A stretch of DNA of 64,000 nucleotides from Pseudomonadota bacterium (lineage in GTDB: Bacteria; Desulfobacterota; Binatia; UBA1149): contig JACNKC010000057.1 of NCBI GenBank assembly GCA_014382245.1, positions 174-64,173 of the forward strand, given 5' to 3'. Below the pieces are notes generated by a model, which worked only from the letters and a program-made list of their open reading frames with translations, was not told the origin of the DNA and searched no databases. The position numbers and the translations under genes were made by a program. Below, piece after piece: positions 17,866-50,150 of this stretch (positions are counted from its first letter, which is position 1; each line of letters starts with the position of its first letter).

Positions 17866-17875
17866 CAGGGTGGAC

Positions 17876-18664: not shown

Positions 18665-18792
18665 GATTTTTCCTGTTTTCACGGGTGGAGTGACTGTCTT
18701 TCTGCCTGATGTGCAAGGCTGATACGAGGCATTTGCCGTTGCCTTTCGGTCGGCAGCGAGCAGCACGGCCGCAGGCGCGCTACAATGGCCCG

Positions 18793-22244: not shown

Positions 22245-22324
22245 GTTATCTCCAGGGGGGTATCAGACGCCTCCCCCTTTTAGCGGGGCGGGGTTGGCTT
22301 GGCCAGCCCCGCGGTGCAGGGTGG

Positions 22325-26159: not shown

Positions 26160-26166
26160 GCCGTGA

Positions 26167-26187
26167 ATATACCCCCAGGGGGTATAT
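26167..26187. promoter_or_regulatory. perfect inverted repeat ATATACCCCC-A-GGGGGTATAT, candidate CsoR-family operator
   Basis: 10-1-10 perfect palindrome with a G/C tract flanked by AT-rich arms. Lies 8 nt upstream of the repressor start codon, in the divergent intergenic region. Confidence 0.7.
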
Positions 26188-26251
26188 AGGTCAAGGGCTT
26201 GTTTCAGTGCTCGCATTGGCACGTGTCTCCCCTTTAGGTAACTAAGACCCC

Positions 26252-27829
26252 GTGGGCTGGGACAAGGAAACCGAGGGGATACGCGCGCGCCGCGAGGCCG
26301 CGCTGGCCATGGGTGGCGCCGAGGCCGTTGACCGTCAGCACGGCAAGGGCCGCCTGACGGTGCGCGAGCGTATTGACGTGCTGGTCGACGAGGGGAGCTT
26401 TGCCGAGCAGGGCCCGATGGCCGGTCACTCCGAGATCGACGACGAGGGACGCCTGGTCGAATTCACGCCGGGCAACTACGTGCTGGGCATGGCGCGCCTG
26501 GACGGTCGGCCCTGCGTGGTAGGGGGTGAGGATTTCACGCTCAAGGGCGGATCGCCCACGCCGGCCGGCCTGCGCAAGAGCGTCTACGCCGAGCAACTGG
26601 CCGTGCAGTACCGGGTGCCCCTGGTGCGCCTGCTCGAGGGTGGCGGCGGCAGCGTGGCCGGAACACGTGGCGGCAAGAACGCGGGCAAGGGTGGCGGCGG
26701 AGCCCACGCCGGCGATCCGGTTTACGTTACGCCCAGGTTCATGTCCTTTGCCGAGGCCATGGCGGCGGTGCCCGTGGTGTCGGTGGCACTGGGGCCGGTG
26801 GCGGGTTTCCCGGCTGCGCGCCTGGTGTCATCTCATTTCTCGATAATGGTGCGCGACACCTCGCAGGTGCTCATCGCCGGGCCGGCCGTCGTGGAGCGCG
26901 CGCTGGGCGAGAAGAAAACCAAGGAAGAACTCGGCGGCGCGGCCGTGCACATGCACAGCGGCGTGGTGGACAACCGGGCCGACGACGAAGCGGGTGCGCT
27001 GGCGCAGGTAAGGCGCTTTCTTTCCTACCTGCCCACCAACGTCTGGGAGCCGGCGCCCCGGGTGGCCCGCGACGACGATCCCGCCCGCGCCGAAAGCGAA
27101 CTCAACTCGATCATCCCGCGCGACCGTCGCAAGGCCTTCGACATCAGGCGGGTGTTGGAACTGGTATTTGACGCGGGCAGTTTCTTCGAGATGTCGGCCG
27201 GCTACGGGCCTTCGCAGGTCACCGGCCTGGCGCGGCTGGACGGACAGGCGGTGGGCGTGTGGGCCAACGACTGCCGCTTCTGGGCCGGCGCGATGGACGC
27301 CGACGGGGCGCAGAAGGCCAGGCGTTTCATTGACCTCTGTGACAGCTTTCACCTGCCTATTATCAGCCTGGTCGACGAACCCGGTTTCATGATTGGTACC
27401 GGGTCAGAGGCGGCCGGCACCATACGCTACGGCGCGCAGACCATATTTGCGGCCAACCAGTCATCGGTACCCTGGGCGGCGGTTCACCTGCGCAAGGCCT
27501 TCGGCGTGGCGGCCGCGGCCCATTTCGGCCCGGAGTCGTACGTGCTGACGTGGCCCTCGGCCGAAAGCGGTGCGCTGCCCGTCGAGGGTGGCGTGGCGGT
27601 GGCCTTCGGACGCGAGATAGCCGCCGCTGATGATCCCGACGCCCTTCGCAGCGAGCTGGAGGAACAGTTCGCCGCCTCGCGCACGCCGTTTCCCCGCGCC
27701 GAGTCTTTCGGAGTACACGATCTCATCGAGCCCGCCGAAACCCGCAGTCGCCTGTGCCGCTGGGTGGAGTGGATACAGCCACGCCTGGCCACGCTGGTGG
27801 GGCCCACCAGCCATTCGGTTCGACCCTAG
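26252..27829 (+). CDS. acyl-CoA carboxylase carboxyltransferase subunit (propionyl-CoA carboxylase beta chain-like)
   Basis: N-terminus EAALAMGGAEAVDRQHGKGRLTVRERIDVLVD typical of PccB/AccD5. Two carboxyltransferase domains. GTG start. Confidence 0.85.
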   Translation: MGWDKETEGIRARREAALAMGGAEAVDRQHGKGRLTVRERIDVLVDEGSFAEQGPMAGHSEIDDEGRLVEFTPGNYVLGMARLDGRPCVVGGEDFTLKGGSPTPAGLRKSVYAEQLAVQYRVPLVRLLEGGGGSVAGTRGGKNAGKGGGGAHAGDPVYVTPRFMSFAEAMAAVPVVSVALGPVAGFPAARLVSSHFSIMVRDTSQVLIAGPAVVERALGEKKTKEELGGAAVHMHSGVVDNRADDEAGALAQVRRFLSYLPTNVWEPAPRVARDDDPARAESELNSIIPRDRRKAFDIRRVLELVFDAGSFFEMSAGYGPSQVTGLARLDGQAVGVWANDCRFWAGAMDADGAQKARRFIDLCDSFHLPIISLVDEPGFMIGTGSEAAGTIRYGAQTIFAANQSSVPWAAVHLRKAFGVAAAAHFGPESYVLTWPSAESGALPVEGGVAVAFGREIAAADDPDALRSELEEQFAASRTPFPRAESFGVHDLIEPAETRSRLCRWVEWIQPRLATLVGPTSHSVRP

Positions 27830-28854
27830 GGAATCAGCGCCAGGCGGATGGGCGAGTTTCGGCGAGAGTCGAGGTCGGCGAAGGCCGAGGCGGCGTCCTC
27901 GAGCGGGTAGCGTTCGGTTATCGATCGCGAAAGATCCAGCGTGCCCGCCGCCGCCATCTCTACCACGCGGTCAAGTTCGGTACGGGTGTAGCCCATCGAG
28001 CCGGTGATCGAGATCTCCTTGCCTATGAACGAGACCAGCGGTGGCAGGCGAGGGCGGTCGATGCCCACGCCGCCGAGCACCACGCGGCCGCTTCTTGCCA
28101 CGCAACGCAAGGCCAGCGAAACGGTGGCTTCGCCGCCTACGAATTCGATCACGCAGGCCGGTCCCTCGCCGCCCGCTGCCCTGCGAACCTGCCGATGGGC
28201 GTCGTCGGCGCGACCGTCCACGCAGACATTGGCACCGGCAGCGCGCGCTTTTTCCAGCGCGCCTTCGCTGGCGTCGATCGCTACCACGGTGCCTGCTCCC
28301 AGTATGCGAGCGAGCAACAAAACGTGGTAGCCAACGCCGCCGCAGCCTATTACGGCCAGGCTCTCGCCAGGCTGCAAGGCGCCGCGCGTAGCAACGGCGT
28401 GGTAGGCAGTGGCCACCGCGTCGGCCAGTATGGCCCCGTGTTCAAAGGGGAGGGTGTCGGGCAGCGGCAGCGTGCAGGAGGCCGAAGCGACTACGCGCTG
28501 AGCAAAAGTACCGTCGCGTGCCATGCCGAAAATCTGCGCGCTCGCGCACAGGCCCAGGTGCCCGTCAAGGCAGGGACCGCACTCGCCGCAGGTCTCGCTG
28601 GGCAACAACAACACGCGGTCGCCCACCGTGCGGTCGGTAACCCCGTCGCCGACCGCGGACACGACGCCGGCACCCTCGTGTCCCATGACTACCGGAAGGC
28701 CAGGCAGCGGTAAACGGCCGTGCACGGCGTGCAGGTCGGTGCCACACACGCCGGCGGCTTTTATATCTACGAGCACTTCGCCCGGGCCAGCGACGGGCTC
28801 GTCTACTTCTTCTACTTCGACCCTGTTTTCCGGGTGCAGTCTTACCGCTTTCAT
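27826..28854 (-). CDS. zinc-dependent alcohol dehydrogenase (MDR family)
   Basis: GHEGAGVV zinc site, CGxCxxC structural zinc motif, GCGGVGYHVLLLARILGAG NAD-binding motif. Confidence 0.85.
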   Translation of the reverse strand: MKAVRLHPENRVEVEEVDEPVAGPGEVLVDIKAAGVCGTDLHAVHGRLPLPGLPVVMGHEGAGVVSAVGDGVTDRTVGDRVLLLPSETCGECGPCLDGHLGLCASAQIFGMARDGTFAQRVVASASCTLPLPDTLPFEHGAILADAVATAYHAVATRGALQPGESLAVIGCGGVGYHVLLLARILGAGTVVAIDASEGALEKARAAGANVCVDGRADDAHRQVRRAAGGEGPACVIEFVGGEATVSLALRCVARSGRVVLGGVGIDRPRLPPLVSFIGKEISITGSMGYTRTELDRVVEMAAAGTLDLSRSITERYPLEDAASAFADLDSRRNSPIRLALIP

Positions 28855-28877
28855 GTTCCTGTCTCCGCTGCCTGTTT

Positions 28878-30455
28878 TTACTCGGCGCCGTGTACGCCGC
28901 CTTCGGCGTTCTTCCAGTGGGGCTCGCGCAGGGCACGGCGCATGATCTTGCCGACCGGTGTCCTGGGAAGTTCGTCCATGATGTCGATTGCCTTGGGTAC
29001 CTTGAATCGCGCGAGACGCTCCTTGCAGAAGGCCAGAAGCTCTGCCTCGCTGGCGCTGGCCCCGGGCCTCAGCGAAACGGCAGCACGTATGGCCTCACCC
29101 CACTTGGGGTCCGGTATCGCGAAGACCGCGCAGTCGGCTACCGCGGGGTGCTCGGCGAGCTCACTCTCTACTTCGGCGGGGTATACGTTGAAGCCACCGG
29201 TTATGATCTTGTCTTCCTTGCGGTCGTCCAGGTAAAGGTAGCCACGTTGGTCGGTGTGTCCGAGGTCACCGGTGTAAAGCCAGCCGTTGCGGAGGCGGGC
29301 CTCGTCGAGTTCCGGGCGTTTCCAGAAACCCGGTGTCGTCCACGGCGCACTTACGCAGATCTCGCCGGTTTCGCCCACTTCCGCTTCCGCACCCGACTCG
29401 TCAACCACGCGCACCTGCGCGAAGGCCGGCCGCTCGCGTCCCACCGACCTGAGCCACTCGCCTTCCTGTTCGAGTGCCGCCGCGTGCTCGTCGGGGCCCA
29501 TGAAGGTGTTGAGTGCGTAGGCTTCGGTTTGTCCGAAGCCGGTGTAGAGCACGGGCCCCACGCGTTCGAAGGCGCGCTTGACCAGCGCCGGTGCCGCCGG
29601 CGCAGCGGCGTATACTATCGCCCGCAGGCTCGAAAGGTCGGCCTGCTCGGCGCCCGGGTGGTCGAGCAGCATGCGCAGCAGGGTGGGAATGATGAGCACC
29701 ATCGTTACCCGGTGTTTCTCGATGGCGGCTATCATCTCTTCGAGGTCGGGGGTGGGCAGGATGACCAGGGTAGCGCCACCCATCCAGCAGGTGTCCATGG
29801 CGCGGCCGCCGAAGTGGCTCAGGGCCAGCTGTCCGAGCAAGCGGTCGTCGGGGTTGACGTCGAAGCTGGTCTGCCAGGAACTCATGGCCGCGGCCACGCT
29901 TCCGTAACTGTGGGTCACTCCCTTGGGGTGGCCGGTGGTGCCCGAGGTATACAGTATCTGCGCGAGCGACGTTGCCGGGCGGTCCAGCGAGGGACGTTCG
30001 AAGGTTTCCTTGTTGGCCAGGGCCGACAGGTCGTGATCGGCCGCAGTGCTGGCGCCCGCGGTCGCATCGCCGGCCACCGATAGAACCGACGCTCCCCCGG
30101 CGGCCGCCCGTGCCCGCTCCACCCCCCTGGCCGACAGGCCGACCACGAAACTGGCCTCGGAGTCGTTGACCATGAAAGAGTGCTCGCTTTCGGTGAGCGC
30201 GCCCAGCAGCGGGACGATAGCTCCACCTGCGCGCGCGATGGCGATCACCGTCCGCACGTACTCTATCGTGTTCTCCTGCACCAGTGCCACGCGCTGGCCG
30301 GGTTCGAGCCCCAGGCCGATCAGTGCGCGCGAAAGTTGGGTGGCGCGTTCGTCGAGCTCGCGGTAGTCCACGCGGCGGTCGCCGTCGATGACGGCGGTTT
30401 GCTCGGGCCAGCTTCGCGCGGCGCGGGCTGGGTAATGGGAGTAGGGCGCTATCAC
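28878..30455 (-). CDS. AMP-dependent acyl-CoA synthetase/ligase
   Basis: LYTSGTTGHPKGV AMP-binding motif. GTG start overlapping the upstream stop (GTGA). Confidence 0.85.
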   Translation of the reverse strand: MIAPYSHYPARAARSWPEQTAVIDGDRRVDYRELDERATQLSRALIGLGLEPGQRVALVQENTIEYVRTVIAIARAGGAIVPLLGALTESEHSFMVNDSEASFVVGLSARGVERARAAAGGASVLSVAGDATAGASTAADHDLSALANKETFERPSLDRPATSLAQILYTSGTTGHPKGVTHSYGSVAAAMSSWQTSFDVNPDDRLLGQLALSHFGGRAMDTCWMGGATLVILPTPDLEEMIAAIEKHRVTMVLIIPTLLRMLLDHPGAEQADLSSLRAIVYAAAPAAPALVKRAFERVGPVLYTGFGQTEAYALNTFMGPDEHAAALEQEGEWLRSVGRERPAFAQVRVVDESGAEAEVGETGEICVSAPWTTPGFWKRPELDEARLRNGWLYTGDLGHTDQRGYLYLDDRKEDKIITGGFNVYPAEVESELAEHPAVADCAVFAIPDPKWGEAIRAAVSLRPGASASEAELLAFCKERLARFKVPKAIDIMDELPRTPVGKIMRRALREPHWKNAEGGVHGAE

Positions 30456-31336
30456 TTGTTCCTGCCGCCTCCCTTGCCGCGGCCCGTAGGAGCAGCGCCA
30501 CCGGGCAGCTCCCTGTCGGCCGGGCCCGTGTAACTCGCGCCCAGTTCGGGCGTGATGATGCGCAGTGGCACGCCGTCGCGTATTTCTTCGACCACGTGGG
30601 CGAGCAGCGCCATGCCGTAACTGAGTGCGCCCAGGCCACCGGTCATCAGCGGATCAAAGCCGAGGTCTGACAGTACGGCGCCCAGCGCACCGGCAAGGTT
30701 TATGGGGATGAGCCTGCCCTTGCGCCGTGCCATTTCTTCTTCCACCGCGTCGAGCAGTTGCCCGTGCTCGTTCCAACCACCCAGCTCGCCCGCCAGCCGC
30801 CTGAGGGCCAGGACCCTGGGCTCGCCTTGCTTGTGCACGGGATGGCCCAGTCCGGGTACAGCGCCTCGGCGTTCGATCCAGGTGTCGATCAACTGCGCCG
30901 CGGCAGCCGCCGGTTCGAGCTCCAGGGCTACGCCTTCGATGAGCATCTCGGCGGGTTCCTGGGGTGAGCCGGTGACTGATCCACTGGCCAGCATGCCGCT
31001 CGCCAGCGCCGGTACGGGCGAATCGGGGGTGGCCGAGGCCGTGTAGCGAGCCGCGCAGGCCGCCGAGTTTATGAACTGCTGGTCCATGCCGCTGCGCAGC
31101 ACGAGGTCGAACAGGGCGGTTTCGCGTTCGTCGGCCAGCTCACCCCTGAGCAGCAGCCACGCGCTCTCGGTGTAAGACAGCCGCTCGATGAGTTCTTCTA
31201 TGCGGTAACCCCTCACTCGTATGTTGCCCTGCTCGGCACGGCTGATCGAAGTGCTCCAGTAGTCGCTCCAGTCGCCCGATGCCACGTACTGGCCGACGTG
31301 TCGTTTTGGTTTTTTGCCGCTTTTACCGTTGCCCAT
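30452..31336 (-). CDS. citrate-synthase-family protein (short form, citryl-CoA lyase-like)
   Basis: PGLGHPVHKQGEPR matches the citrate synthase signature G-x-G-H-x-V-x-K-x2-[DE]-P-R. Length 294 aa as in the citryl-CoA lyase subfamily. GGGAGAG RBS. Confidence 0.55.
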   Translation of the reverse strand: MGNGKSGKKPKRHVGQYVASGDWSDYWSTSISRAEQGNIRVRGYRIEELIERLSYTESAWLLLRGELADERETALFDLVLRSGMDQQFINSAACAARYTASATPDSPVPALASGMLASGSVTGSPQEPAEMLIEGVALELEPAAAAAQLIDTWIERRGAVPGLGHPVHKQGEPRVLALRRLAGELGGWNEHGQLLDAVEEEMARRKGRLIPINLAGALGAVLSDLGFDPLMTGGLGALSYGMALLAHVVEEIRDGVPLRIITPELGASYTGPADRELPGGAAPTGRGKGGGRNK

Positions 31337-31357
31337 GTTGGTCTCTCCCGCTGCCGG

Positions 31358-32149
31358 TTATCTGCCCTTGAAAACGGGTTTACGTTTATCGAGAAAAGCC
31401 CGCGGTCCTTCCTGCGCGTCTTCGCTCTGCCGCACGGGTTCGGCCAGCAGTTGCTCCAGGCGCAGGCCTTCTTCCAGGGGAAGGTCGAGCCCACGCAACA
31501 CCGCCGCCCGCGCGGCCTGTACGGCCAACGGCGCGTTGGCGGCTACGAGTCCGGCCAGCTCGGTGGCCTGTTCGAGCAGGTCGGCGGCATCCACCACGCG
31601 GCTCACCAGTCCTACCCGCAGCGCTTCTTCGGCGTCCAGGCGTCGCCCGCTCATGATCATGTCCAGGGCGACCGACGGTCCTACCAGCCGCGGCAGGCGC
31701 TGGGTGCCGCCGGCGCCTGGTATGAGCCCGTGCGTGACCTCGGGCAGGCCGAAGCTGGCCGTGTCGGCGGCCAGGCGAATGTCGCAGGACAACGCGAGCT
31801 CGAGCCCACCGGCCAGGCAGGCCCCGTTTATCGCGGCGATGATGGGTTTCTCGATTCGCATGTTACGCGTCAGTCCGCCCAAGCCGGGCTGTTGCTCTGA
31901 GCGGCGCAGTCGTTCGGTCGGGCCCAGGTTCCGGTAGAACTCGCCCACGCCCCTCATGTCGGCGCCCGAGCAGAAGGCCTTGTCGCCGGCCCCCGTGAGC
32001 ACGGCTACGCGCAGGTCCGGGTCGTCGTTGAAGCGTCGCCAGGTAGCCACCAGCTCGTCGCTGGCATCGAAGTCGAGCGCGTTGCGCACTTCGGGGCGGT
32101 CGATCGTGACAAGCGCCACGCCGCCTGTTGTTTCAAAGAGTATGCTCAT
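31358..32149 (-). CDS. enoyl-CoA hydratase/isomerase (crotonase family)
   Basis: Crotonase fold motifs (ALVTIDRPEVRNAL, GAGDKAFCSGADM). ATGA overlap with the upstream DUF35 gene. Confidence 0.85.
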   Translation of the reverse strand: MSILFETTGGVALVTIDRPEVRNALDFDASDELVATWRRFNDDPDLRVAVLTGAGDKAFCSGADMRGVGEFYRNLGPTERLRRSEQQPGLGGLTRNMRIEKPIIAAINGACLAGGLELALSCDIRLAADTASFGLPEVTHGLIPGAGGTQRLPRLVGPSVALDMIMSGRRLDAEEALRVGLVSRVVDAADLLEQATELAGLVAANAPLAVQAARAAVLRGLDLPLEEGLRLEQLLAEPVRQSEDAQEGPRAFLDKRKPVFKGR

Positions 32150-32607
32150 GTCTTTTTCCCCGTGCTGGCCTCGCTTGTGCCGGTGGTTCCTCCGCTGGTC
32201 GGTTCGAAGCGGGGAATTTTCCGGTCGCCCGCCTGTTCAAACACCAGCTGCACTCTCATGCCGGTGCGCACTGCGTCGGAATCGAGCCCCGTTACGTTCG
32301 ATACCATGCGCGGGCCCTCGTCCAACTCTATGACCGCCACGACGTAGGGCGGTGGTATCGCGGGGTGGTAGCCGTGGCGGTAGACGGTGTACGTCACGAC
32401 CTGTCCGCGGCCGCTCGCCGCGTGCTGGTCGATATAGCTTGACCAGCAGCGCGGACAGCAGGGGCCGGGGGGCAGGAAGTAGTGCCCGCAGTCGCGGCAG
32501 TGCGTCATCATCAGCGATCCGTGTTGGCAGGCTTCCCAGAACGACGCCGTCAGTTGGTCATCTGCGGGCGCGGGGTGCGCGGTTTTCGTGGCTGCCTTTT
32601 CCTCCAT
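32146..32607 (-). CDS. DUF35 OB-fold / Zn-ribbon protein (thiolase partner, ChsH2-C/BbsA-like)
   Basis: CRDCGHYFLPPGPCCPRCWS zinc ribbon followed by an OB-fold. Translationally coupled (1-nt overlap) to the upstream thiolase gene. Confidence 0.75.
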   Translation of the reverse strand: MEEKAATKTAHPAPADDQLTASFWEACQHGSLMMTHCRDCGHYFLPPGPCCPRCWSSYIDQHAASGRGQVVTYTVYRHGYHPAIPPPYVVAVIELDEGPRMVSNVTGLDSDAVRTGMRVQLVFEQAGDRKIPRFEPTSGGTTGTSEASTGKKT

Positions 32608-33746: not shown

Positions 33747-34900
33747 GCGACCCCCGCCGGCATGCGTCGCTTGGCAATTATTTCGCGCATGATCTCGCTC
33801 GTGCCCGCTCCCACTCCCCAGTTCTGAACGCCGCGGGCGCAGCGGGCCACGTAGTTTTCTTTCATGAAGCCGTAGCCACCGTGGGCCTGGGCGCATTCGA
33901 GCACGAGGTCGCGCGTGAGTTCAGCGCCGTAAAGCTTGGCCATGCTCACGGTGGTTTCTCCCTGCGGATCTCCCTCGCAGAGTTCTTCGGCGGCGCGGTA
34001 ACTGAGCAGCTCGGAGGCTTCGAGTCGGGTCATGAGATCGGCCATGCGGTGGCGCCACACCTGCATCGAGGCCAGCGGACGACCGAAGGCCTTGCGCTGG
34101 GCCATGTAGTCAAGCGTTTCTTCGAGTACGTCACGGCACAGCGAGTTCATCATTGCCGACAGCACCAGGCGTTCCCCCTGGAAGGCCTGCATGATGTAGC
34201 CGAAGCCCGCGCCTTCTTCGCCCACGAGGTAGCGCCGCGGAACGCGCACGTTGTCGAAGAACAGCTCGGCGGTGTCGCCCGAGTGCAGGTCCACTTTTTC
34301 CAGCGGGCTGCCGACCTGGTAGCCCGGCGAGTCGGTGGGGCACACCAGTATGCTCACTCCGCGCGGGCCCGGGCCGCCGGTGCGCACGGCGAGGGTAACG
34401 AAGTCGGCGCGTACGCCGTTGGATATGAAGATCTTCGATCCGTTTATGATGTAGTCGTCGCCGTCGGCGACCGCAGAGGTAGTGAGGGCCGCCACGTCAG
34501 AGCCGCCGCCGGGCTCGGAAACGCCCAGCGCAGCTATTTTTTCGCCCTTGATGGCGGGCAGGAGCCACTGGTCGCGCAGCTGGTCGCTGCCGTGCGCGTG
34601 GATTATCCCCGTGGCCATTTCGCACTGCACGAGCAGGCCCACCACGCTACCCATGTCGCGGCCACGGGCCAGTTCTTCGACCAGGATCACCGTGTACCAG
34701 TAGTCCAGTTCGCTGCCGCCCCAGCGCGCGGAGTAGCGCACTCCGAGCAATCCCAGGTCGCCGGCCTTGCGAATCAGCTCGTCTGGAAAACGGCCTTGCT
34801 GTTGCCACTGCTCGGCGTTGGGCAGGATCTCGTCGCGCGTGAATCGTCGCACCGTTTGCCTGAATGCCTCGTGTTCTTCGGTCCACCGGGGAAAACTCAT
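33743..34900 (-). CDS. acyl-CoA dehydrogenase
   Basis: Full-length ACAD fold with the usual FAD/substrate motifs (GGSDVAAL-like loop, C-terminal helical domain). Confidence 0.9.
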   Translation of the reverse strand: MSFPRWTEEHEAFRQTVRRFTRDEILPNAEQWQQQGRFPDELIRKAGDLGLLGVRYSARWGGSELDYWYTVILVEELARGRDMGSVVGLLVQCEMATGIIHAHGSDQLRDQWLLPAIKGEKIAALGVSEPGGGSDVAALTTSAVADGDDYIINGSKIFISNGVRADFVTLAVRTGGPGPRGVSILVCPTDSPGYQVGSPLEKVDLHSGDTAELFFDNVRVPRRYLVGEEGAGFGYIMQAFQGERLVLSAMMNSLCRDVLEETLDYMAQRKAFGRPLASMQVWRHRMADLMTRLEASELLSYRAAEELCEGDPQGETTVSMAKLYGAELTRDLVLECAQAHGGYGFMKENYVARCARGVQNWGVGAGTSEIMREIIAKRRMPAGVA

Positions 34901-34930
34901 CGTTTGTTCCTCTTGTCCGGGTTGGCTCGC

Positions 34931-35569
34931 CTAGCGCGCTGCCTTGCCGGGTAGCAATATGCCGCGGGCGAAAACGTCGTCCATGAGTGGCAGCATTTCA
35001 TCGAGATCGTAGTCGTGGGTGTCGAGCATCTCGCGTTCAACCAGCACACGGCCGAGGTGGAACATCAGGTAGGCCACCCGCTCGGGGTCAACGCGACGCA
35101 GAACCTTCTGCCTGATGCCTTCTTCGATCACTCGCTGCAACAGGCCGATGATGCGCGATTCCTGGTCACGGGTAAACGCGTGTGCCGCGGTTTCGAGGGT
35201 CATCTCGGGGTCGCCGGCCAGTGCGTGACCGAGTACGTTGTCGCGGCGGTAGTTCTGCCTGGTGAGTTCTACTACGGTGCGCATTTTTTTGCGTGCGCTG
35301 TTTCCGCCGGCGTTGCCGCTCACAATTTTCTCGGCCTTCGCGATGAAGAACTCGGCGTCGCGCTCAAGCAGGCTGATGTAAAGGTCTTCCTTGTTGCGGA
35401 AGTGTGCGTAGAGGGTAGTGCGCGAGCAGCCGGCCTCGCGGGCGATCTCGTCCATGGTGGTCTTGCGCGGCCCGAAGCGCAGAAACCGCCGGTTAGCCGC
35501 TTCGAGTATCGCTTGGCGTGCGCCGGCGGTGTCCGCGCCGGTCCTGCTGCCCGTTCCTGTCGTCGCCAT
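34931..35569 (-). CDS. TetR/AcrR family transcriptional regulator
   Basis: N-terminal HTH (RKTTMDEIAREAGCSRTTLYAHFRNKEDL). Confidence 0.8.
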   Translation of the reverse strand: MATTGTGSRTGADTAGARQAILEAANRRFLRFGPRKTTMDEIAREAGCSRTTLYAHFRNKEDLYISLLERDAEFFIAKAEKIVSGNAGGNSARKKMRTVVELTRQNYRRDNVLGHALAGDPEMTLETAAHAFTRDQESRIIGLLQRVIEEGIRQKVLRRVDPERVAYLMFHLGRVLVEREMLDTHDYDLDEMLPLMDDVFARGILLPGKAAR

Positions 35570-35678
35570 GCCAGCAACTTAACATTTGACGTTTGTTTGT
35601 CAAGTTGTTAGGGTAGCGTCCGGCTGGAGGCGGTTGGCCACAAGCACCGCCGCAGTGAACGGGGAGAAGAACAACGAC

Positions 35679-36533
35679 ATGGCAGAAAAAGCAGGAGCAA
35701 TTGACGCGTGGGCAACACTGATGCTGCCGGGCAGGTTTGACCGCTGGCCCGAGGAGTTCAAGCACATCTTCCGCCGTTACAGCAGCATAGACCTGTTCGA
35801 AAAGGGTATGACCCCCGAGCAGATGATAGAGCACATGGACGCTGCCGGTGTCGATAAGGTTATGTTCTCGGCCTTTGGCTACGGCGACCTCGAGTTGTTG
35901 AGCAACCAGGAGGTGGCCGAGATATGCGCGAAGTATCCGGATCGCTTCGTAGGCGTGGGCACGGTGGACCCGCGCGGTAAGCCGATGGACGTGGCCCGCG
36001 AAGTTGAAAAACTTGGACGCGAGTACGGCATGAAGGGTGTTCGCCTGGAACCCTACGCCTACGGTGACGGTATGACCGGCGCGCCGCCGAACGGCAAGAT
36101 GTACTGGCCCGTGTACATGAAGTGCGTGGAGCTGGACATGGCCGTGTGCATGCAGGTAGGCCACACCGGCCCGCTGCTGCCATCGGAGGCCGGGCGTCCG
36201 ATCTACATCGACGAGATCGCGCTGTCGTTTCCCGAATTGACCATCGTTGGCTGTCACCTGGGCCAACCGTGGCACGAGGAGATGATGATACTGGCGTGGA
36301 AGCACCCCAACGTTTATGTCGAGACCAGCGCGCGCACGCCCAAGCACTGGCCGCCGTCTTTCGTTGACTTCGTCAAGGGCTGGGGCCGCGACAAGGTGTT
36401 GTGGGCCACCGATTACCCGCTGCTGACCTTTGAGCGCACGCTCAAGGAACTACGCGATCTTGGAATCGACGACGAGATCTACAACAAGGTGGTGCGCGAA
36501 AACTGCGTGCGCGCTTTCAAGCTGGACAAGTGA
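35679..36533 (+). CDS. amidohydrolase-2 family (ACMSD-like TIM-barrel metal-dependent hydrolase)
   Basis: Amidohydrolase_2 length and pattern. ATG at 35679 preceded by GGGGAGAAG; the ORF track starts at 35586. Confidence 0.65.
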   Translation: MAEKAGAIDAWATLMLPGRFDRWPEEFKHIFRRYSSIDLFEKGMTPEQMIEHMDAAGVDKVMFSAFGYGDLELLSNQEVAEICAKYPDRFVGVGTVDPRGKPMDVAREVEKLGREYGMKGVRLEPYAYGDGMTGAPPNGKMYWPVYMKCVELDMAVCMQVGHTGPLLPSEAGRPIYIDEIALSFPELTIVGCHLGQPWHEEMMILAWKHPNVYVETSARTPKHWPPSFVDFVKGWGRDKVLWATDYPLLTFERTLKELRDLGIDDEIYNKVVRENCVRAFKLDK

Positions 36534-36579
36534 GCAGGGCCCCGCGGAAGAAGAGAGCTTGAGCGTGGACGCGGCGGCG

Positions 36580-37014
36580 ATGGGAGCCAACCTGGAGCGT
36601 ATTCCCTTTACGCTGGAGATGGGCCTGGTCATAGAGCGACTGCAGGACGGCGAAACGCACATGCTGCTGCCGGCTGGACGGGGCAATCACAACCTGGTGG
36701 GCACGGTACACGCCGGGGCGGTGTTCACCTTTGCAGAAACCGTGGCCGGCGTAGCTGCCGGTGCCGACACGCTCGAGCACGGGTTTCCCTTCGTGCGCAG
36801 CGCCCGGGTGCGCTACCTGAGACCGGGTGACGGCGAGTTGCACGGGCACGCGAGCGTGGAGGCCGAAGACGTAGCGCGGGTGCTGGCCGAGTTGAGCGAG
36901 TACGGTCGTTCGAGACTCAGCGTGTCAGTCAAGATCGAAGACACCGAAGGGCGGCTGGTGGCCGAGCTCGACGTCGACTACGCCTTCAGACCGATAGCGG
37001 GGGAGAAAAAATGA
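36580..37014 (+). CDS. hotdog-fold thioesterase (PaaI/DUF4442-like)
   Basis: NLVGTVHAGAVFTFAETVAG motif typical of PaaI-type thioesterases. An alternative GTG start lies at 36565. Confidence 0.55.
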   Translation: MGANLERIPFTLEMGLVIERLQDGETHMLLPAGRGNHNLVGTVHAGAVFTFAETVAGVAAGADTLEHGFPFVRSARVRYLRPGDGELHGHASVEAEDVARVLAELSEYGRSRLSVSVKIEDTEGRLVAELDVDYAFRPIAGEKK

Positions 37015-37793
37015 ACGAACTACTGAGAAGCGAAATCAACGACGGCGTGGTGACCATAACGCTGACGCAACCCGGCAACATGAACGCGCTCAGCCTGGGC
37101 ATGCTCGACGTCCTGATGGAGGCCCTCGACCGGGCCGCCGCCGATGACAGCGTGAGAGTGGTCGTGCTTGCCGCCGAGGGCAAGGTGTTTTGTGCGGGTG
37201 CCGATCGGGCCGAGATGATAGAGCGCGAACCCGCCGAGTGGGAACCCATCGTGGATCGTTATCTCGATCCCGTGCGCGCGATAGCGGGCATGGACAAGCC
37301 GGTGGTGGCGCGCCTGCACGGCGACACGGTCGGGGGCGGATTCGGACTGGCGATGGCCTGCGACTTCAGGGTGGCCGTGGAGGGCATACGGCTGGGCGCG
37401 CCGTTTGTTCGCATTGGACTGGCCGGTTGTGACATGTCGGCCGGGTATTTTCTTCCACGCTTGATCGGCCTGGGCGCGGCCACCGAGATGATGATGACCG
37501 GCCGCCTGGTCAAGGCCGAAGAGGCCCTGGCCATGGGCCTGGTTCACCGCGCGGTCGCGGTTGACCAGCTGGACGATGAACTGGCCGAGCTCGTGGGGCG
37601 GCTGAGGAACGGGCCGCCGATAGCGTTGGCGTTTACCAAGCGCGCGATCAGGCGTTCGCTGGATCGCGACATGAATTCGGAGTTCGACTACGAGGTATTT
37701 GCCCAGGTGCAGTGCATACAGACCGAGGATCATCGCGAGGGGGTGAAGGCGTTTTTCGACGAGAAGCGCGCGCCGATTTTTCGTGGAAAGTAG
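37011..37793 (+). CDS. enoyl-CoA hydratase/isomerase (crotonase family)
   Basis: Crotonase fold (GKVFCAGAD oxyanion motif). ATGA overlap with the upstream thioesterase gene. Confidence 0.85.
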   Translation: MNELLRSEINDGVVTITLTQPGNMNALSLGMLDVLMEALDRAAADDSVRVVVLAAEGKVFCAGADRAEMIEREPAEWEPIVDRYLDPVRAIAGMDKPVVARLHGDTVGGGFGLAMACDFRVAVEGIRLGAPFVRIGLAGCDMSAGYFLPRLIGLGAATEMMMTGRLVKAEEALAMGLVHRAVAVDQLDDELAELVGRLRNGPPIALAFTKRAIRRSLDRDMNSEFDYEVFAQVQCIQTEDHREGVKAFFDEKRAPIFRGK

Positions 37794-37816
37794 CAGGCAG
37801 GACGGGAGCAGGGTTC

Positions 37817-38965
37817 ATGGCTGAAGCAGATTTTTACTTGAGCGAGGAGCAACGGTCGTTGCAGTCGACCTTGCGCGACTTTGTCGCTGCCGAGGTGGAG
37901 CCGCTCGCCCAGGGGGCCGACGATGACGAGCGCTTTCCGGTGCAGGTGTTGCGCAAACTGGGTGGGCTTGGCTATCTCGGACTGCGTTTCCCCGTTGAGG
38001 TGGGCGGGGCGGGGGGTAGCAACCTCGACTACGCGGTCATGTGCGAGGAGATGGCGCGCGGCTCGGCCGGTATAGCGCTGGGAGTGTACGTCCACACGGC
38101 GCTGGCCTGTTCGGCCTTGACGGAGTTCGCGTCCGATGATTTGCGCGAACGCTGGCTCGCCCCGGCACTGCGCGGCGAGGCCATCGGCGGCTGGGCTTTT
38201 GCCGAGGCCGGGGCCGGGTCTGACGCCGCGTCGATTACTACCAGCGCCGCCGTCGATGGCGATGACTACGTTCTCAACGGCGCCAAGATGTACATCACCA
38301 ATGGCACCATAGCCGACTTCCTGGTGGTGGTCGCCTCCACGACGCCGGGGCAGGGGCTCAAGGGTCTGTCGTTGTTTCTCGTGGAGGCCGACCGTCCCGG
38401 TTTCAAGGTCGCTCGCCCCTTGTCCAAGCTTGGGGTTCGGGCTTCGGAGATGGCCGAGCTTGTTTTCGAAGACTGCCGGGTGCCGCGTGAAAACCTGCTG
38501 GGAAGAGAGGACAAGGGTTTCCTCGACGCGCTCAGGGTGCTGGTGTTCGGTCGCATAGCGTCGGCGGCTTTCGCCGTAGGGATCTCTCGTGCGGCGTTGG
38601 AGGCCACGGTCGAGCATGTGCGCGAGCGGCGGCAGTTCGGTGTGTCGGTCGGTAGCTTCCAGGCGGTGCGCTTCGGGGTCGCCGACATGGCCATGCAGAT
38701 AGAGGCGGCCCGCCTGCTTTGTCACCGGGCAGCCATCGCTGCCGACCGGGGTTTGCCTCACGGCCGTGAAGCGTCGATGGCCAAGCTTTTTGCCACCGAG
38801 ACATGCACGCGCGTGGTCGAGCGAGCGTTGCATTACCACGGGGCAACGGGATTCATGTCGGACTCCCCGGTGCAGCGTTACTACCGCGACTGCAAAGTGT
38901 TCGAATTCGGCGAAGGCTCAAGCGAACTGCAGCGCGAGATGATCGCGCGCGAGCTGGGTCTCTGA
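37817..38965 (+). CDS. acyl-CoA dehydrogenase
   Basis: MAEADFYLSEEQRSLQ typical ACAD start. The rest of the ACAD fold follows, including a catalytic Glu near the C-terminus (EFGEGSSE). The ORF track starts at 37712. Confidence 0.9.
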   Translation: MAEADFYLSEEQRSLQSTLRDFVAAEVEPLAQGADDDERFPVQVLRKLGGLGYLGLRFPVEVGGAGGSNLDYAVMCEEMARGSAGIALGVYVHTALACSALTEFASDDLRERWLAPALRGEAIGGWAFAEAGAGSDAASITTSAAVDGDDYVLNGAKMYITNGTIADFLVVVASTTPGQGLKGLSLFLVEADRPGFKVARPLSKLGVRASEMAELVFEDCRVPRENLLGREDKGFLDALRVLVFGRIASAAFAVGISRAALEATVEHVRERRQFGVSVGSFQAVRFGVADMAMQIEAARLLCHRAAIAADRGLPHGREASMAKLFATETCTRVVERALHYHGATGFMSDSPVQRYYRDCKVFEFGEGSSELQREMIARELGL

Positions 38966-39014
38966 GCCGAGGGGGAGTATCCCCCTCGGGCTTTCTTTCT
39001 GATAGAGGGGAAGC

Positions 39015-39992
39015 ATGAACGTGGAATACGGAACCTTCGTACCGCAGGGCTGGCGCATGGAGATGCAGCATCTCCAGGGCGGCCAATCCCAGTGGAATGT
39101 CTTGACCGCGAGCGCGCGCGCGCTTGAAGACGCTGGCTACGACTCGTTGTGGTTGTACGACCACTTTCACACCGTGCCGCGTCCGGCCATGGAGCCGACC
39201 TTCGAGTGCTGGAGTACGATGGCCGCTCTGTCGCAGGTGACAAGCCGAGTGCGCCTGGGCCAGCTGGTGACCTGCAGCGCCTATCGCAACCCGGCTTACC
39301 TCGCCAAGCTGGCCAGCTGCGTTGACGTGATGAGCGGCGGCAGGGTCGACCTTGGAATAGGCGCCGGCTGGAAGACCGAGGAGTTCGAAGCCTACCAGTA
39401 CCCGTTTGCCGGCATACGCGAGCGCCTCGACCGCATGGCCGACACGGCGCGTATCTGCCGCGCGATGTTCACGGACGAGAAAGCCACCGTAGAGGGAGTG
39501 TACCACCGGGTGACCGACGCCATCAACGAGCCAAAGCCCGTGCAGGCCGGGGGGCCCCCGATCTGGATAGGCACGCAGGGCGAAAAAGTCGGCCTGCGCA
39601 TGGTGGCCGAAGTGGCCGACGGCTGGAACCATAACCGTGGGCCCGACGAGTACGAGCGCAAGCGCGAGATCCTTGCAGGGCATTGTCGCGACCGCGGCCG
39701 CGACCCCGACAGCGTGCGCATATCAGTGGAGAACACCTGCGTGATCTACGAGAGCGAAGCCGAGCTACGTGATTTTGCCGCTCGCTGGTGGCCGCACTAC
39801 AACGAGAAACAACTCACCAGGTTCCTGGCCAACTGCTGGACCGGGAGGGCCGAGGATATCGCGGCCGAGATAAGGTTTTTTACCGAGCGGGGAGCGTCGC
39901 TGGTGATCTGCTGGTTCCAGGACCTCTGTGACGCCGGCAATGAGGATTCGCAGGCGCAGCGATTTATGCGCGAGGTCGTGCCGCTGGTCTGA
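39015..39992 (+). CDS. LLM-class F420/flavin-dependent oxidoreductase
   Basis: Luciferase-like monooxygenase family pattern (MNVEYGTFVPQGW start, TIM barrel). Confidence 0.75.
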   Translation: MNVEYGTFVPQGWRMEMQHLQGGQSQWNVLTASARALEDAGYDSLWLYDHFHTVPRPAMEPTFECWSTMAALSQVTSRVRLGQLVTCSAYRNPAYLAKLASCVDVMSGGRVDLGIGAGWKTEEFEAYQYPFAGIRERLDRMADTARICRAMFTDEKATVEGVYHRVTDAINEPKPVQAGGPPIWIGTQGEKVGLRMVAEVADGWNHNRGPDEYERKREILAGHCRDRGRDPDSVRISVENTCVIYESEAELRDFAARWWPHYNEKQLTRFLANCWTGRAEDIAAEIRFFTERGASLVICWFQDLCDAGNEDSQAQRFMREVVPLV

Positions 39993-50078: not shown

Positions 50079-50150
50079 GGCGGCTTCGCTTACAACAACT
50101 ATTGACAAATCACTCAATAGCGCTAAGAGTGTAGCTCACTGGAAGCTGTC

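Follow-up and report, generated by a model that had tools for sequence, protein, structure and literature searches.

Results

Gene content and organization of the locus

The window analyzed here is a stretch of 64,000 nucleotides of contig JACNKC010000057.1, in which the following genes and features lie between positions 26252 and 39992.

26252-27829, plus strand: carboxyltransferase, PccB-like (Pfam)
27826-28854, minus strand: Zn-dependent medium-chain alcohol dehydrogenase (Zn-ADH), last in the minus-strand operon (Pfam ADH_N and ADH_zinc_N)
28878-30455, minus strand: AMP-forming acyl-CoA synthetase, ACS (Pfam AMP-binding and AMP-binding_C)
30452-31336, minus strand: short citrate-synthase-like (CS-like), citryl-CoA lyase (CCL)-like protein (Pfam Citrate_synt, C-terminal part)
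31358-32149, minus strand: crotonase ECH1, canonical enoyl-CoA hydratase (Pfam ECH_1)
32146-32607, minus strand: stand-alone DUF35 protein (Pfam zf-ChsH2 and OB_ChsH2_C)
32607-33746, minus strand: SCP2-type thiolase-fold protein (Pfam)
33743-34900, minus strand: acyl-CoA dehydrogenase ACAD1 (three Pfam ACAD domains)
34931-35569, minus strand: TetR-family regulator, first in the minus-strand operon (Pfam TetR_N)
35580-35610, no strand: candidate TetR operator palindrome, an inverted repeat in the divergent promoter region
35679-36533, plus strand: amidohydrolase-2 family protein (AH2), first in the plus-strand operon (Pfam Amidohydro_2)
36559-37014, plus strand: DUF4442/YiiD_C hotdog-fold protein, putative acyl-CoA thioesterase (Pfam DUF4442, YiiD_C and 4HBT)
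37011-37793, plus strand: crotonase-fold protein ECH2 (Pfam ECH_1)
37817-38965, plus strand: acyl-CoA dehydrogenase ACAD2 (Pfam ACAD domains)
38967-38989, plus strand: terminator-like hairpin (10-bp stem with 8 G-C pairs, T-rich tail)
39015-39992, plus strand: LLM oxidoreductase (Pfam)

All of the genes and start/stop overlaps described in an earlier sequence-only reading proved to be real, and each of its domain calls is backed by Pfam. Read from the sequence, the junctions are TTGA between ACAD1 and the thiolase-fold gene, TGATG between the latter and the DUF35 gene, ATGA between DUF35 and ECH1, and GTGA where the GTG start of ACS lies over the CS-like stop; an additional ATGA joins the hotdog stop to the ECH2 start. 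The thiolase-fold gene starts at the TTG at 33746, the upstream ATG of the longest open reading frame being a wrong start; the AH2 start ATG at 35679 is preceded by GGGGAGAAG, and the hotdog start codon is uncertain (36559, 36565 or 36580). In orthologous loci a 4-nt overlap was inferred for the CS-like and ACS genes (46 of 54), for ACAD1 and the thiolase-fold gene (19 of 19), and for DUF35 and ECH1 (20 of 22), and the gene overlaps of the cluster are regarded as not due to chance.

The two divergent operons had been read as separate. On the basis of synteny in more than 60 loci and a shared operator, we consider them to be a single conserved and co-regulated unit that comprises 12 genes (27826-38989). 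Neither the carboxyltransferase, previously described as lying upstream, nor the LLM oxidoreductase, previously placed in the plus-strand set, is present in the three related loci L007 (Binatia), L008 (Rubrivivax) and L009 (a gammaproteobacterial MAG), all of which carry the same gene set, as do 63 genome loci that likewise lack the two genes; the LLM gene, moreover, lies behind the hairpin at 38967-38989 that ends the plus-strand operon. Both are thus judged to be strain-specific neighbors outside the unit. The span had been credited with several LLM oxidoreductases; one is genuine by Pfam and it is the only one there, a paralogue with 28% identity being located at 16756-17865. A weak motif test found no biotin-carboxylase/BCCP signature in any plausible gene across the whole window.

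The candidate operator upstream of tetR is an imperfect palindrome, TAACATTTGAC-N9-GTCAAGTTGTTA (35580-35610). Among 13 type A loci the tetR/amidohydrolase spacer contains one conserved block only, with the consensus TAACAnnTTGAC...GTCAAnTGTTA, and tetR itself is kept at the same position in type A loci with 57-65% identity. The core TTGAC-N8-GTCAA has one further copy in the window, intragenic at 42763, against 0.14 matches expected by chance. The cluster is most likely TetR-regulated through this shared operator-like palindrome, as predicted from the sequence.

Distribution of the cluster

More than 60 loci contain the cluster, nearly all of them in MAGs (62 of the 63 genome loci are labeled MAG or uncultured), from hosts labeled Binatia/Myxococcota, Alpha-, Beta- and Gammaproteobacteria and Chloroflexi; there was no cultured model organism among the loci compared. 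Of all the genes, AH2 has the widest conservation; the hotdog gene was found in roughly half of the loci, and a Liv-type ABC transporter adjoins the cluster in about 15. Type B loci have the thiolase-fold, DUF35 and CS-like genes side by side, and the Chloroflexi loci have CS-like, ECH2, ACAD2 and ADH genes with no aldolase/DUF35 pair nearby. The CS-like, DUF35 and AH2 genes retain 45-78% identity across phyla, which argues for specific functions.

Five sister clusters (L073, L074 and L076-L078) carry orthologues of ACAD1, ECH1 and AH2. ACAD2 and ECH2 orthologues occur in four of them, the hotdog gene in at least four, and the ADH in three; Zn-ADH orthologues are also found in type A and type B loci. 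In each of the five, the gene immediately preceding AH2 encodes a beta-keto-acid cleavage enzyme (BKACE); none has a CS-like gene, and L074 encodes a CoA-transferase in addition.

The thiolase-fold protein and its DUF35 partner

The best PDB matches of the thiolase-fold protein are 4u4e and the TcLtp2 aldolase 6ok1 (phmmer E 1.8e-56). Its nucleophile position is occupied by Ala88 within a G-G-A that is invariant in all 54 orthologues, there being no nucleophilic Cys, so that thiolysis by this protein is impossible and the thiolytic role implied by its earlier designation as an SCP-x thiolase has to be abandoned. Y279-D-C281-F is invariant across the orthologues, and Tyr329, aligned with TcLtp2 Tyr344, is kept in 53 of 54. 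As this is the catalytic set of the Sal/Ltp2 steroid aldolases, whose residue roles have been described (PMC12329534), we predict that the protein is not a thiolase but a retro-aldolase of the Sal/Ltp2 type acting on beta-hydroxyacyl-CoA. Its 153-aa partner combines a rubredoxin-like Zn ribbon with an OB fold, and the C4 zinc ligands C37, C40, C51 and C54 are invariant in 56 of 56 sequences. The proposed resemblance of the pair to retro-aldol systems of the Ltp2-ChsH2 type is therefore upheld by both the catalytic residues and the DUF35 partner.

With Ltp2-ChsH2 of Thermomonospora curvata (6ok1) and Sal-Shy of Comamonas testosteroni it shares an SCP2-thiolase fold lacking the nucleophilic Cys, the Tyr of a Y-D-x-[FY] motif as base, and an obligatory-looking DUF35 Zn-ribbon partner encoded alongside. 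Unlike either aldolase, the window protein unites the catalytic residues of both, namely the Cys of Y-D-C-x as in Sal and the second Tyr as in Ltp2. In those systems, moreover, DUF35 is the C-terminal domain of a MaoC hydratase, whereas here it is a free protein, the hydratase is a crotonase, and the steroid gene context is absent. The pairing of a thiolase-fold protein with a DUF35 subunit is also common to the benzoylsuccinyl-CoA thiolase BbsAB (7pxp, E 2.7e-27), which differs in that thiolysis is not possible in the window protein. The comparison with kstR/kstR2 regulons and bbs operons suggested by the sequence-only reading revealed no orthology: NCBIfam scores were 31 bits against a cut-off of 250 for BbsA and 97.5 against 750 for BbsB, and equivalents of BbsEF, BbsCD and BbsG in matching order are absent from the cluster.

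The citrate-synthase-like protein

The CS-like gene lies directly upstream of ACS in 54 of 54 loci. The protein has the short architecture (about 260-290 aa) of the citryl-CoA lyase 6hxp and of the ACLY CS-homology module, and it keeps the histidine of G-x-G-H-P-x-H-K, the A-H-x-x-E-E helix and the C-terminal Arg of CCL/ACLY; H165, H168, H247, E250, E251 and R259 are invariant among its orthologues. Its coupling to an adjacent acyl-CoA-forming ligase has parallels in the CCS/CCL pair and in ACLY, with its ASH-CSH fusion. A true citryl-CoA lyase or citrate synthase, through which the cluster would supply or consume citrate, citryl-CoA or intermediates of the malyl-CoA type (a reverse-TCA-like step being one example), would agree with the closest solved relative of the protein being the CCL of Hydrogenobacter thermophilus (6hxp, E 5e-35), with the NCBIfam "citryl-CoA lyase" subfamilies being its top matches, and with the label "citrate synthase" given to its relatives in public sources. 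We nevertheless hold this to be very improbable. All of the NCBIfam scores fall under their cut-offs (181.8 vs 212), and all 64 orthologues carry N213-L-A215-G in place of the N-V-D-G of citrate synthase and CCL, with Ala for the catalytic Asp, and T122 in place of the oxaloacetate-binding His, whereas sister clades of the same small family retain N-[VI]-D-G. Furthermore, the partner ligase is AMP-forming and not a succinyl-CoA-synthetase homologue of the ADP-forming kind, no citryl-CoA synthetase was seen among the surrounding genes that were examined, and the context is acyl-CoA catabolism, unlike that of CCL/ACLY. ACLY D1026A, the equivalent Asp-to-Ala change, is inactive (PMC10115795). Since a residue essential in citrate synthase and ACLY is missing, the CS-like protein may be non-catalytic. 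The earlier description of a citrate-synthase/citryl-CoA-lyase-like enzyme unusual in this setting therefore stands as to the setting, but the protein lacks the active site that defines either enzyme.

The remaining enzymes

ECH1 has the catalytic pair E117 and E137 in 52 of 52 sequences, its best PDB matches being short-chain hydratases and a 3-hydroxypropionyl-CoA dehydratase. ECH2, earlier taken for a second enoyl-CoA hydratase, has G112 and F132 at both hydratase Glu positions and an invariant D141 (49 of 49). Its best PDB matches are 6slb, 6sl9 and 3hrx, which we take to be Thermus thermophilus PaaG, with the E. coli 1,2-epoxyphenylacetyl-CoA isomerase (4fzw_C) ranking lower; by these residues it would not be a hydratase and resembles the isomerase PaaG.

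The two acyl-CoA dehydrogenases are 38% identical. In ACAD1 the catalytic Glu is at the IVD/LCAD position (E243 in G-E-R-L-V, invariant) with G-A-G at the MCAD Glu position (50 of 50), and the best PDB matches are 2pg0, 3oib, 3r7k and human LCAD 8w0t; ACAD2 has the MCAD-type E366 (G-E-G) in all 41 residue-bearing sequences and G245 at the IVD-type position. Across 49 aligned sequences of Zn-ADH, no variation occurs at the predicted catalytic Zn ligands (C37, H59 and D145), the four structural-Zn Cys (89, 92, 95 and 103) or the NAD-type D194. The best PDB matches of ACS are FadD8, a feruloyl-CoA synthetase and FadD13, and for that reason its specificity is left uncalled. AH2, best matched by the uncharacterized BB4693 (3irs), has D9, W11 and T13 invariant in 43 orthologues, in whose alignment no HxH motif was found; H162, H193, H199, H209 and D245 are also invariant.

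Discussion

We lean, by a modest degree, toward the view that 27826-38989 is one TetR-regulated catabolic cluster of two divergent, translationally coupled operons, by which a carboxylic acid with a branched or alicyclic beta-carbon would be degraded via CoA thioesters, with C-C bonds cut without thiolysis. Degradation of a branched or ring-containing acid, with the place of the normal thiolase taken by a hydrolase, an aldolase and an unusual relative of citrate synthase, is probable. Previously a branched, cyclic or aromatic-substituted acyl-CoA had been suggested as the substrate, and a bulky or branched one is indeed probable. We infer the individual steps as follows, their order and the division of labor among the three candidate C-C-cleaving proteins being guesses. 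The acid would be activated by ACS, desaturated as a bulky or 3-substituted acyl-CoA by ACAD1 and hydrated by ECH1, after which the thiolase-fold/DUF35 aldolase would split the beta-hydroxyacyl-CoA into acetyl- or propionyl-CoA and a ketone or aldehyde. AH2 may cleave a C-C bond of a beta-dicarbonyl intermediate hydrolytically, possibly opening a ring, for which SRAH and CouO are precedents. Zn-ADH would supply or remove a carbonyl, or alternatively act on a free alcohol instead of a CoA ester, and ACAD2 with the isomerase-like ECH2 would reposition an unsaturation. The CS-like protein could act with ACS, either cleaving beta-hydroxyacyl-CoA as a lyase or assisting as a partner in acyl-CoA handling, and in this would correspond to BKACE in the sister clusters.

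By orthology, none of the characterized pathways matches the whole set. A routine beta-oxidation cluster for fatty or branched-chain acids (fad-like), its unusual members being misannotated paralogues, would account for the ACS, the two ACADs, the two crotonase-fold proteins with ECH1 as canonical hydratase, the thiolase-fold protein and TetR, but we consider it most unlikely: neither of the usual kinds of 3-hydroxyacyl-CoA dehydrogenase (HADH or SDR) is encoded in the cluster, the thiolase-fold nucleophile is replaced by Ala in every orthologue, both glutamates are missing in ECH2, and the conservation of the CS-like, DUF35 and AH2 proteins across phyla points to specific functions. The earlier opinion that this is not a standard fad regulon is thereby supported. 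There is equally little probability that the cluster is biosynthetic, with the thiolase-fold/DUF35 pair and the CS-like protein condensing units to a branched acyl-CoA in the manner of the archaeal thiolase/HMG-CoA synthase/DUF35 complex or PhlABC. DUF35 does scaffold such condensing complexes (PMC12329534 cites thiolase/HMGCS and PhlABC), citrate synthases catalyze condensations, and the three genes are neighbors in type B loci. Against this, the condensing Cys is missing, and a TetR repressor together with ACS, two ACADs and a neighboring ABC system for solute uptake is what one typically finds in catabolic loci. Among the genes examined, none was noticed that would serve tailoring or export, and the enzyme occupying this place in the sister clusters, BKACE, is degradative in the phloroglucinol pathway (PMC10470551).

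Steroid or bile-acid degradation, either as side-chain removal (Ltp2-ChsH1/H2 or Sal-Shy) or as an oxygen-independent ring module (2,3-seco), is unlikely, though less so than these. It draws on the Sal/Ltp2 catalytic residues and DUF35 partner, on the presence of the cluster in Halieaceae, Burkholderiales and Rhodobacteraceae MAGs, and on the 2,3-seco ring-A route of Sterolibacterium denitrificans, in which a cyclic 1,3-diketone is opened by the amidohydrolase-2 enzyme SRAH and a CoA ligase, an ACAD, a second hydrolase, an enoyl-CoA hydratase and an acetyl-CoA-releasing aldolase act after it (PMC11780191), the same enzyme logic as here when matched by description. The functional analogy is a loose one, however, since AH2 has a mass of about 32 kDa against about 40 kDa for SRAH and does not have the HxH metal motif. 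The MaoC-type hydratase (ChsH1/H2 or Shy) is absent, and AtcABC/1-TDH (the molybdenum 1-TDH gene of the 2,3-seco route included), Ksh, KstD and Hsa genes were not found among the called genes in the inspected 10-kb flanks. NCBIfam steroid equivalogs scored far under their cut-offs (EchA19 272.9 vs 400, CasG 246.7 vs 750, FadD3 family 320 vs 657), and the hosts, different and much broader, include Binatia, Chloroflexi, Nanopelagicales and Nitrospirae, which are outside the steroid degraders listed in a single steroid paper.

Two further systems bear on the catabolic role that we favor. CouO of Rhodococcus jostii RHA1, likened to AH2 by description, is an amidohydrolase-superfamily protein catalyzing the final deacetylating C-C cleavage in a CoA-dependent, beta-oxidative hydroxycinnamate side-chain pathway, but the cou cluster is devoid of the DUF35, aldolase and CS-like genes. 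Phloroglucinol degradation proceeds by a ring-opening hydrolase, then a dehydrogenase, then a BKACE enzyme (PMC10470551), the anaerobic pathway comprising DPGC, 3-hydroxy-5-oxohexanoate dehydrogenase and a BKACE-family triacetate lyase. That pathway has no ACADs, crotonases or DUF35 proteins, its hydrolase belongs to the "cyclase" family and not to amidohydrolase 2, and BKACE is absent from the window itself; the sister clusters nonetheless pair a candidate ring-opening-type hydrolase with BKACE in the same way, three of them also with Zn-ADH.

Gene content and conservation of the cluster

In this analysis, we show that the two divergent operons at 27826-38989 form a single unit, the same gene set recurring across loci, and are not the two operons plus accessories that a sequence-only reading had described. 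The domain names given in that reading are all backed by Pfam, and the gene overlaps it claimed were confirmed by reading the junctions directly in the sequence. On the minus strand, which carries TetR, ACAD1, a thiolase-fold protein (THL), DUF35, the crotonase ECH1, a citrate-synthase-like (CS-like) protein (CCL in gene orders), an acyl-CoA synthetase (ACS) and a Zn-ADH, TTGA contains the ACAD1 stop and the TTG start of the thiolase-fold gene at 33746, TGATG joins the thiolase-fold and DUF35 genes, ATGA joins DUF35 and ECH1, and GTGA joins the CS-like gene and ACS; short gaps lie between TetR and ACAD1 (30 nt), ECH1 and the CS-like gene (21 nt), and ACS and ADH (23 nt). On the plus strand, which carries the amidohydrolase-2 gene AH2, a hotdog gene (DUF4442), the second crotonase ECH2 and ACAD2, the hotdog and ECH2 genes overlap at ATGA. 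Read in the opposite orientation, the window is matched by a metagenome contig of 64.4 kb (ENA ERZ24794647 NODE_3074). GC content is uniform (61-68%) throughout the window, with no compositional break at the cluster and no island signature, and tRNA and Rfam scans of the window found no element. None of the cluster proteins could be placed at NCBIfam equivalog level.

Relatives of the CS-like protein with 68-78% identity occur in hundreds of metagenomic contigs, and a Binatia genome of 4.77 Mb, a Rubrivivax MAG and a gammaproteobacterial MAG carry all twelve gene families, though arranged differently. A locus scan that took one genome per species yielded 63 loci, all but one (62/63; the exception is 'Rhizobiaceae bacterium' CAJPFN01, L055) labelled MAG or uncultured, from Binatia, UTPRO1, Myxococcota-labelled lineages, Hyphomonadaceae, Parvularculaceae, Rhodobacteraceae, Burkholderiaceae, several Gammaproteobacteria and Chloroflexi; their sources include anammox and wastewater reactors and marine, hydrothermal and groundwater samples. 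When the proteins of the window were mapped onto the loci, the three architectures listed below emerged.

Architectures of the cluster among the 63 loci
Type A (window): ACAD2-ECH2-(hotdog)-AH2 <- -> TetR-ACAD1-THL-DUF35-ECH1-CCL-ACS-ADH
Type B (Proteobacteria): ADH-(TetR)-ACAD2-ECH2-(hotdog)-AH2-ECH1-ACAD1 <- -> THL-DUF35-CCL-ACS
Type C (Chloroflexi), a reduced set: CCL, ECH2, ACAD2, ADH

The core proteins are 45-78% identical across phyla. The observation itself is solid and the conservation striking; together with the spread, this degree of identity points to what may be a common natural substrate. A tblastn search of 72,556 plasmids returned no orthologous cluster, only distant 'citryl-CoA lyase' relatives with 30-35% identity. 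An all-vs-all clustering of stop-to-stop ORFs for additional conserved neighbours confirmed the known core alone, the signal being swamped by antisense shadow ORFs, which are typical of high-GC DNA; a greedy gene caller proved unreliable too.

In about 15 loci from Proteobacteria the cluster has a Liv-type ABC uptake system beside it, and an acid substrate would fit with its presence. This transporter lies at 15185-19839 of the Rubrivivax locus (L008) and in about 14 other type B loci (Burkholderiaceae, Rhodobacteraceae, Rhizobiaceae); the binding proteins (Peripla_BP_6) of different loci share 74-89% identity, and a fused AMP-binding protein is included. A PF04116 gene (fatty-acid hydroxylase/sterol desaturase family) follows ADH in the Binatia locus (L007, 13456-14139), and related sequences, 35-82% identical, are present in a further 11 loci, of type A and from Hyphomonadaceae/Parvularculaceae. 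The window has no PF04116 gene.

The thiolase-fold protein and its DUF35 partner

The thiolase/DUF35 pair had been read as performing a retro-aldol or thiolytic step, and the residues support the former and speak against the latter. The best solved relatives of the thiolase-fold protein are 4u4e and the steroid aldolase TcLtp2 (6ok1). The nucleophilic Cys of true SCP2-type thiolases (C-x-S/T-G, N-terminal domain) is missing, its position being taken by Ala88 in a G-G-A motif invariant in 54/54 orthologues, and in place of H-D-C-F and the G-H-P oxyanion His there are Y279-D-C281-F and E-[GAC]-Y-G-G. Y279, D280, C281 and F282 are invariant in the 54 sequences, and Tyr329, which aligns with TcLtp2 Tyr344, is kept in 53/54, so that the Tyr of Y-D-[CH]-[FY] and the Cys or second Tyr that mark Sal/Ltp2 aldolases are present. 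In those enzymes the catalytic base is the Tyr of Y-D-H-F (Ltp2) or Y-D-C-Y (Sal), the part of catalytic acid is played by Tyr344 in Ltp2 and by the Cys of the motif in Sal, and Sal, with Gly at the place of the nucleophile, is incapable of thiolysis (PMC12329534). The thiolase-fold protein of the window thus carries both residue sets. Moreover, the DUF35 gene adjoins and overlaps the thiolase-fold gene, as expected of a partner, and its C4 zinc ribbon (C37, C40, C51, C54) is invariant. Judged by these residues, the protein is predicted to be of aldolase type, with thiolysis ruled out, and it would add to the thiolase-fold aldolase/DUF35 family a member from outside steroid degradation.

Pfam domain calls found no HADH or SDR 3-hydroxyacyl-CoA dehydrogenase gene within 27826-38989, and the lack of a conventional enzyme of this kind may be explained by the predicted aldolase-type cleavage replacing thiolysis.

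The citrate-synthase-like protein and its coupled ligase

The homology to citrate synthase and citryl-CoA lyase was borne out, the closest solved structure being the Hydrogenobacter citryl-CoA lyase 6hxp (E 5e-35), but not identity with either enzyme. Profile-aligned with 6hxp and with citrate synthases, the protein has I-P-I-N-L-A-G-A opposite N-V-D-G/F, so that the catalytic Asp is replaced by Ala215, and G-S-V-T-G-S-P-Q-E opposite G-x-x-H-G-G-A-x-E, so that the oxaloacetate-binding His is replaced by Thr122; neither of these defining residues of citryl-CoA lyases and citrate synthases is therefore retained. Ala215 and Thr122 are invariant in 64/64 orthologues, including the 55%-identical Chloroflexi proteins. 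The thioester-polarising His (G-x-G-H) and the C-terminal Arg are kept as H165 and R259, both invariant, as are H168, H247, E250 and E251. The protein also remains below the NCBIfam curated cut-offs, its best model being NF004869 (181.8 vs 212 bits). The Asp aligned with Ala215 is the one that we take, from the N-V-D motif, to be D375 of pig citrate synthase, D362 of the E. coli enzyme and D1026 of ACLY. ACLY D1026A is inactive, and whether D1026 acts as a general base or as an allosteric element is still debated (PMC10115795). By the defining active-site test, the CS-like protein is not a citryl-CoA lyase, and its strong conservation argues for a specific ligand-binding or catalytic role. The AlphaFold2 model, built on a shallow 10-sequence alignment, was poor (pLDDT 55.6).

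A family survey covering 1.84 billion representative proteins found that, within its branch, N-L-A-G is confined to the clade of the window protein (P0055, P0121); in the nearest sister clusters N-[VI]-D-G persists together with a T...SPQ loop, and canonical CCLs have H-G-G-A plus N-V-D-G. In a second, more distant clade of short CS-homology proteins (P0177, P0184, P0194, P0197 and others) the Asp is also gone (N-[AV]-[TAVSG]-G), with F, Y or L at the position of the oxaloacetate His. The existence of two Asp-less clades implies that the catalytic Asp was lost more than once in the family. The cluster defines a clade of CS-homology proteins barred from the textbook mechanism, which is distinct and mechanistically puzzling. 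Public labels for the relatives read 'citrate synthase', and citryl-CoA lyase is the name borne by the NCBIfam models nearest to them; surveys that go by homology could thus miscount these proteins as TCA or reverse-TCA markers.

The CS-like gene lies directly upstream of ACS in 54/54 loci, with an inferred 4-nt overlap in 46, a coupling that recalls the CCS/CCL pair and the ligase-CSH fusion of ACLY. [quoted passage not shown]

The remaining enzymes

Both crotonases had been named enoyl-CoA hydratases, which holds for ECH1 and not for ECH2. ECH1 keeps the two hydratase Glu residues, E117 and E137, in 52/52 sequences; ECH2 has G/C112 and F132 at these positions, with an invariant D141; it is probably no hydratase but an isomerase or a different kind of crotonase. 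Among solved structures it comes closest to 6slb, 6sl9 and 3hrx, which we take to be Thermus thermophilus PaaG. ACAD1, whose best matches include human LCAD, has its catalytic Glu (E243) at the IVD/LCAD position, an arrangement accommodating branched or bulky substrates, and G-A-G at the MCAD position, and ACAD2 is of the MCAD type (E366). ADH has both zinc sites and the NAD-type Asp. AH2 scores well above the Pfam PF04909 gathering threshold (135.4 vs 26.4 bits) and finds its closest match in BB4693 (3irs), an uncharacterised protein. It keeps the later H162, H193 and D245 and lacks the N-terminal HxH (or ExH), having instead I-D9-A-W11-A-T, invariant in 43 orthologues; this stretch is presumably strand 1, where HxH/ExH would be expected in this family.

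Sister clusters bearing BKACE

Orthologues of AH2 with 62-66% identity reach further taxa, and we looked at five such sister contexts, which belong to Nanopelagicales, Nitrospirae, Acidimicrobiia, Thermoanaerobaculia and an unassigned contig. Every one of them contains orthologues of ACAD1 (44-49%), ECH1 (59-61%) and AH2; four also have ECH2 (59-64%) and ACAD2 (50-58%), three show ADH (42-49%), and at least four have a hotdog gene (DUF4442/4HBT). None of the five has a CS-like gene, and in each a BKACE gene (PF05853, 284 bits) lies directly upstream of AH2, accompanied by another thiolase-like set, which lacks the Cys, and by two DUF35 genes (in L074, a single gene of double length). It follows from this comparison that the conserved core consists of ACAD1, ECH1, ACAD2, ECH2 and AH2, usually with ADH and hotdog, and that the module for C-C cleavage and activation is exchangeable. 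The cluster, in these two interchangeable versions, occurs in MAGs recovered from reactors (wastewater, anammox), the marine water column, aquifers below the seafloor, hydrothermal sediments and groundwater.

The sister clusters (L073, L074, L076, L077, L078) encode a thiolase-like protein about 345 aa long with little or no Pfam match, and also a thiolase-like protein lacking the Cys, which in L073 and L074, the two checked, has Y-E-P-V where the window has Y-D-C-F. A further locus from Chloroflexi (L075) is a reduced variant with ADH, ACAD1, AH2, ECH2, ACAD2 and a family III CoA-transferase; neither a BKACE nor a CS-like gene is in view on its contig.

A proposed pathway and its relation to known systems

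The amidohydrolase-2 enzyme SRAH opens a cyclic 1,3-diketone hydrolytically; after it come a CoA ligase and an ACAD, then a hydrolase that releases acetate, an enoyl-CoA hydratase and an aldolase that releases acetyl-CoA (PMC11780191). CouO, of the amidohydrolase superfamily, carries out the final deacetylation of a beta-oxidative pathway (PMC4737184), and in phloroglucinol degradation a hydrolase opens the ring, after which a hydroxy-acid dehydrogenase and then a BKACE enzyme take over (PMC10470551). On the strength of these precedents, the function we infer for the cluster is the oxygen-independent, non-thiolytic breakdown of a branched or alicyclic acid. The acid would be activated by ACS, desaturated by ACAD1 and hydrated by ECH1, with retro-aldol cleavage by the thiolase-fold/DUF35 pair; AH2 would cleave a beta-dicarbonyl hydrolytically, ADH may make or remove the carbonyl, ACAD2 and ECH2 may reposition a double bond, and the CS-like/ACS pair would cover the step done elsewhere by BKACE.

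The set is not a standard fad regulon, since it combines the lack of an HADH/SDR dehydrogenase with a non-thiolytic thiolase-fold protein. The comparison with kstR/kstR2 regulons and bbs operons, proposed in the sequence-only reading, showed orthology to neither. The window proteins reach 31.1 bits against a cut-off of 250 for BbsA and 97.5 against 750 for BbsB, and the bbs operon has BbsEF, BbsG, BbsH and BbsCD, whereas the window cluster has no family-III CoA-transferase or SDR pair. Scores for the steroid enzymes EchA19, FadD3, CasG and IpdE2 are all below cut-off, and the inspected flanks of the Binatia, Rubrivivax and gammaproteobacterial loci contain no steroid-core genes. The literature library that was searched yielded no description of the cluster, which is best filed, as a new version, with the aldolytic/hydrolytic acyl-CoA catabolic clusters of steroid and aromatic side-chain degradation.

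Regulation

An imperfect palindrome, TAACATTTGAC-N9-GTCAAGTTGTTA, lies at 35580-35610, in the 109 nt that separate tetR from the amidohydrolase gene. It is the sole alignable spacer block in 13 type A loci (consensus TAACAnnTTGAC...GTCAAnTGTTA), and its core occurs once more in the window, within a gene (0.14 expected by chance). We infer that it is a candidate TetR operator that would govern both operons. A conserved operator and its TetR regulator offer an experimental handle on the inducer, and hence on the substrate.

Neighbouring genes

The PccB/MmdA-like carboxyltransferase (26252-27829, plus strand) converges on the ADH gene, their 3' ends overlapping by 4 nt (27826-27829). It had been described as lacking a biotin-carboxylase partner, in keeping with a motif search, a weak test, in which no plausible gene within the window showed a biotin-carboxylase or BCCP motif. 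In the orthologous loci mapped, the carboxyltransferase and the LLM oxidoreductase (39015-39992, plus strand) were found only in contigs of the window's own strain, so that neither can be retained as an associate of the set. An Atu/Liu-like terpenoid pathway by way of the carboxyltransferase was rejected because the gene is missing from all orthologous loci and the window yielded no partner motif. An F420/LLM step was likewise dismissed, the LLM gene being strain-specific and located beyond a terminator-like hairpin (38967-38989, after ACAD2; 10-bp, G+C-rich, T-rich tail). The LLM protein passes TIGR03560, an F420-dependent subfamily (248 vs cut-off 231 bits), the sole curated pass among it and the cluster proteins. 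A paralogue, 28% identical, lies 21 kb upstream (16756-17865, plus strand) and is not part of the conserved cluster.

Farther out, the minus strand encodes a 1212-aa protein with FG-GAP repeat matches only and no NCBIfam family (40095-43733) and two adjoining ORFs of about 410 aa each without a Pfam match at E <= 1e-5 (48888-51374). On the other side, a short way upstream, a cytochrome P450, an Amidohydro_1 protein and a TauD/TfdA-family dioxygenase (20982-24669) are kept in same-strain contigs only. At 24676-26222 on the minus strand, a predicted permease that ends in a heavy-metal-associated domain (ArsP_1 + HMA) is preceded upstream by a CsoR-like repressor of the metal-sensing kind (PF02583), and this pair adjoins the carboxyltransferase.
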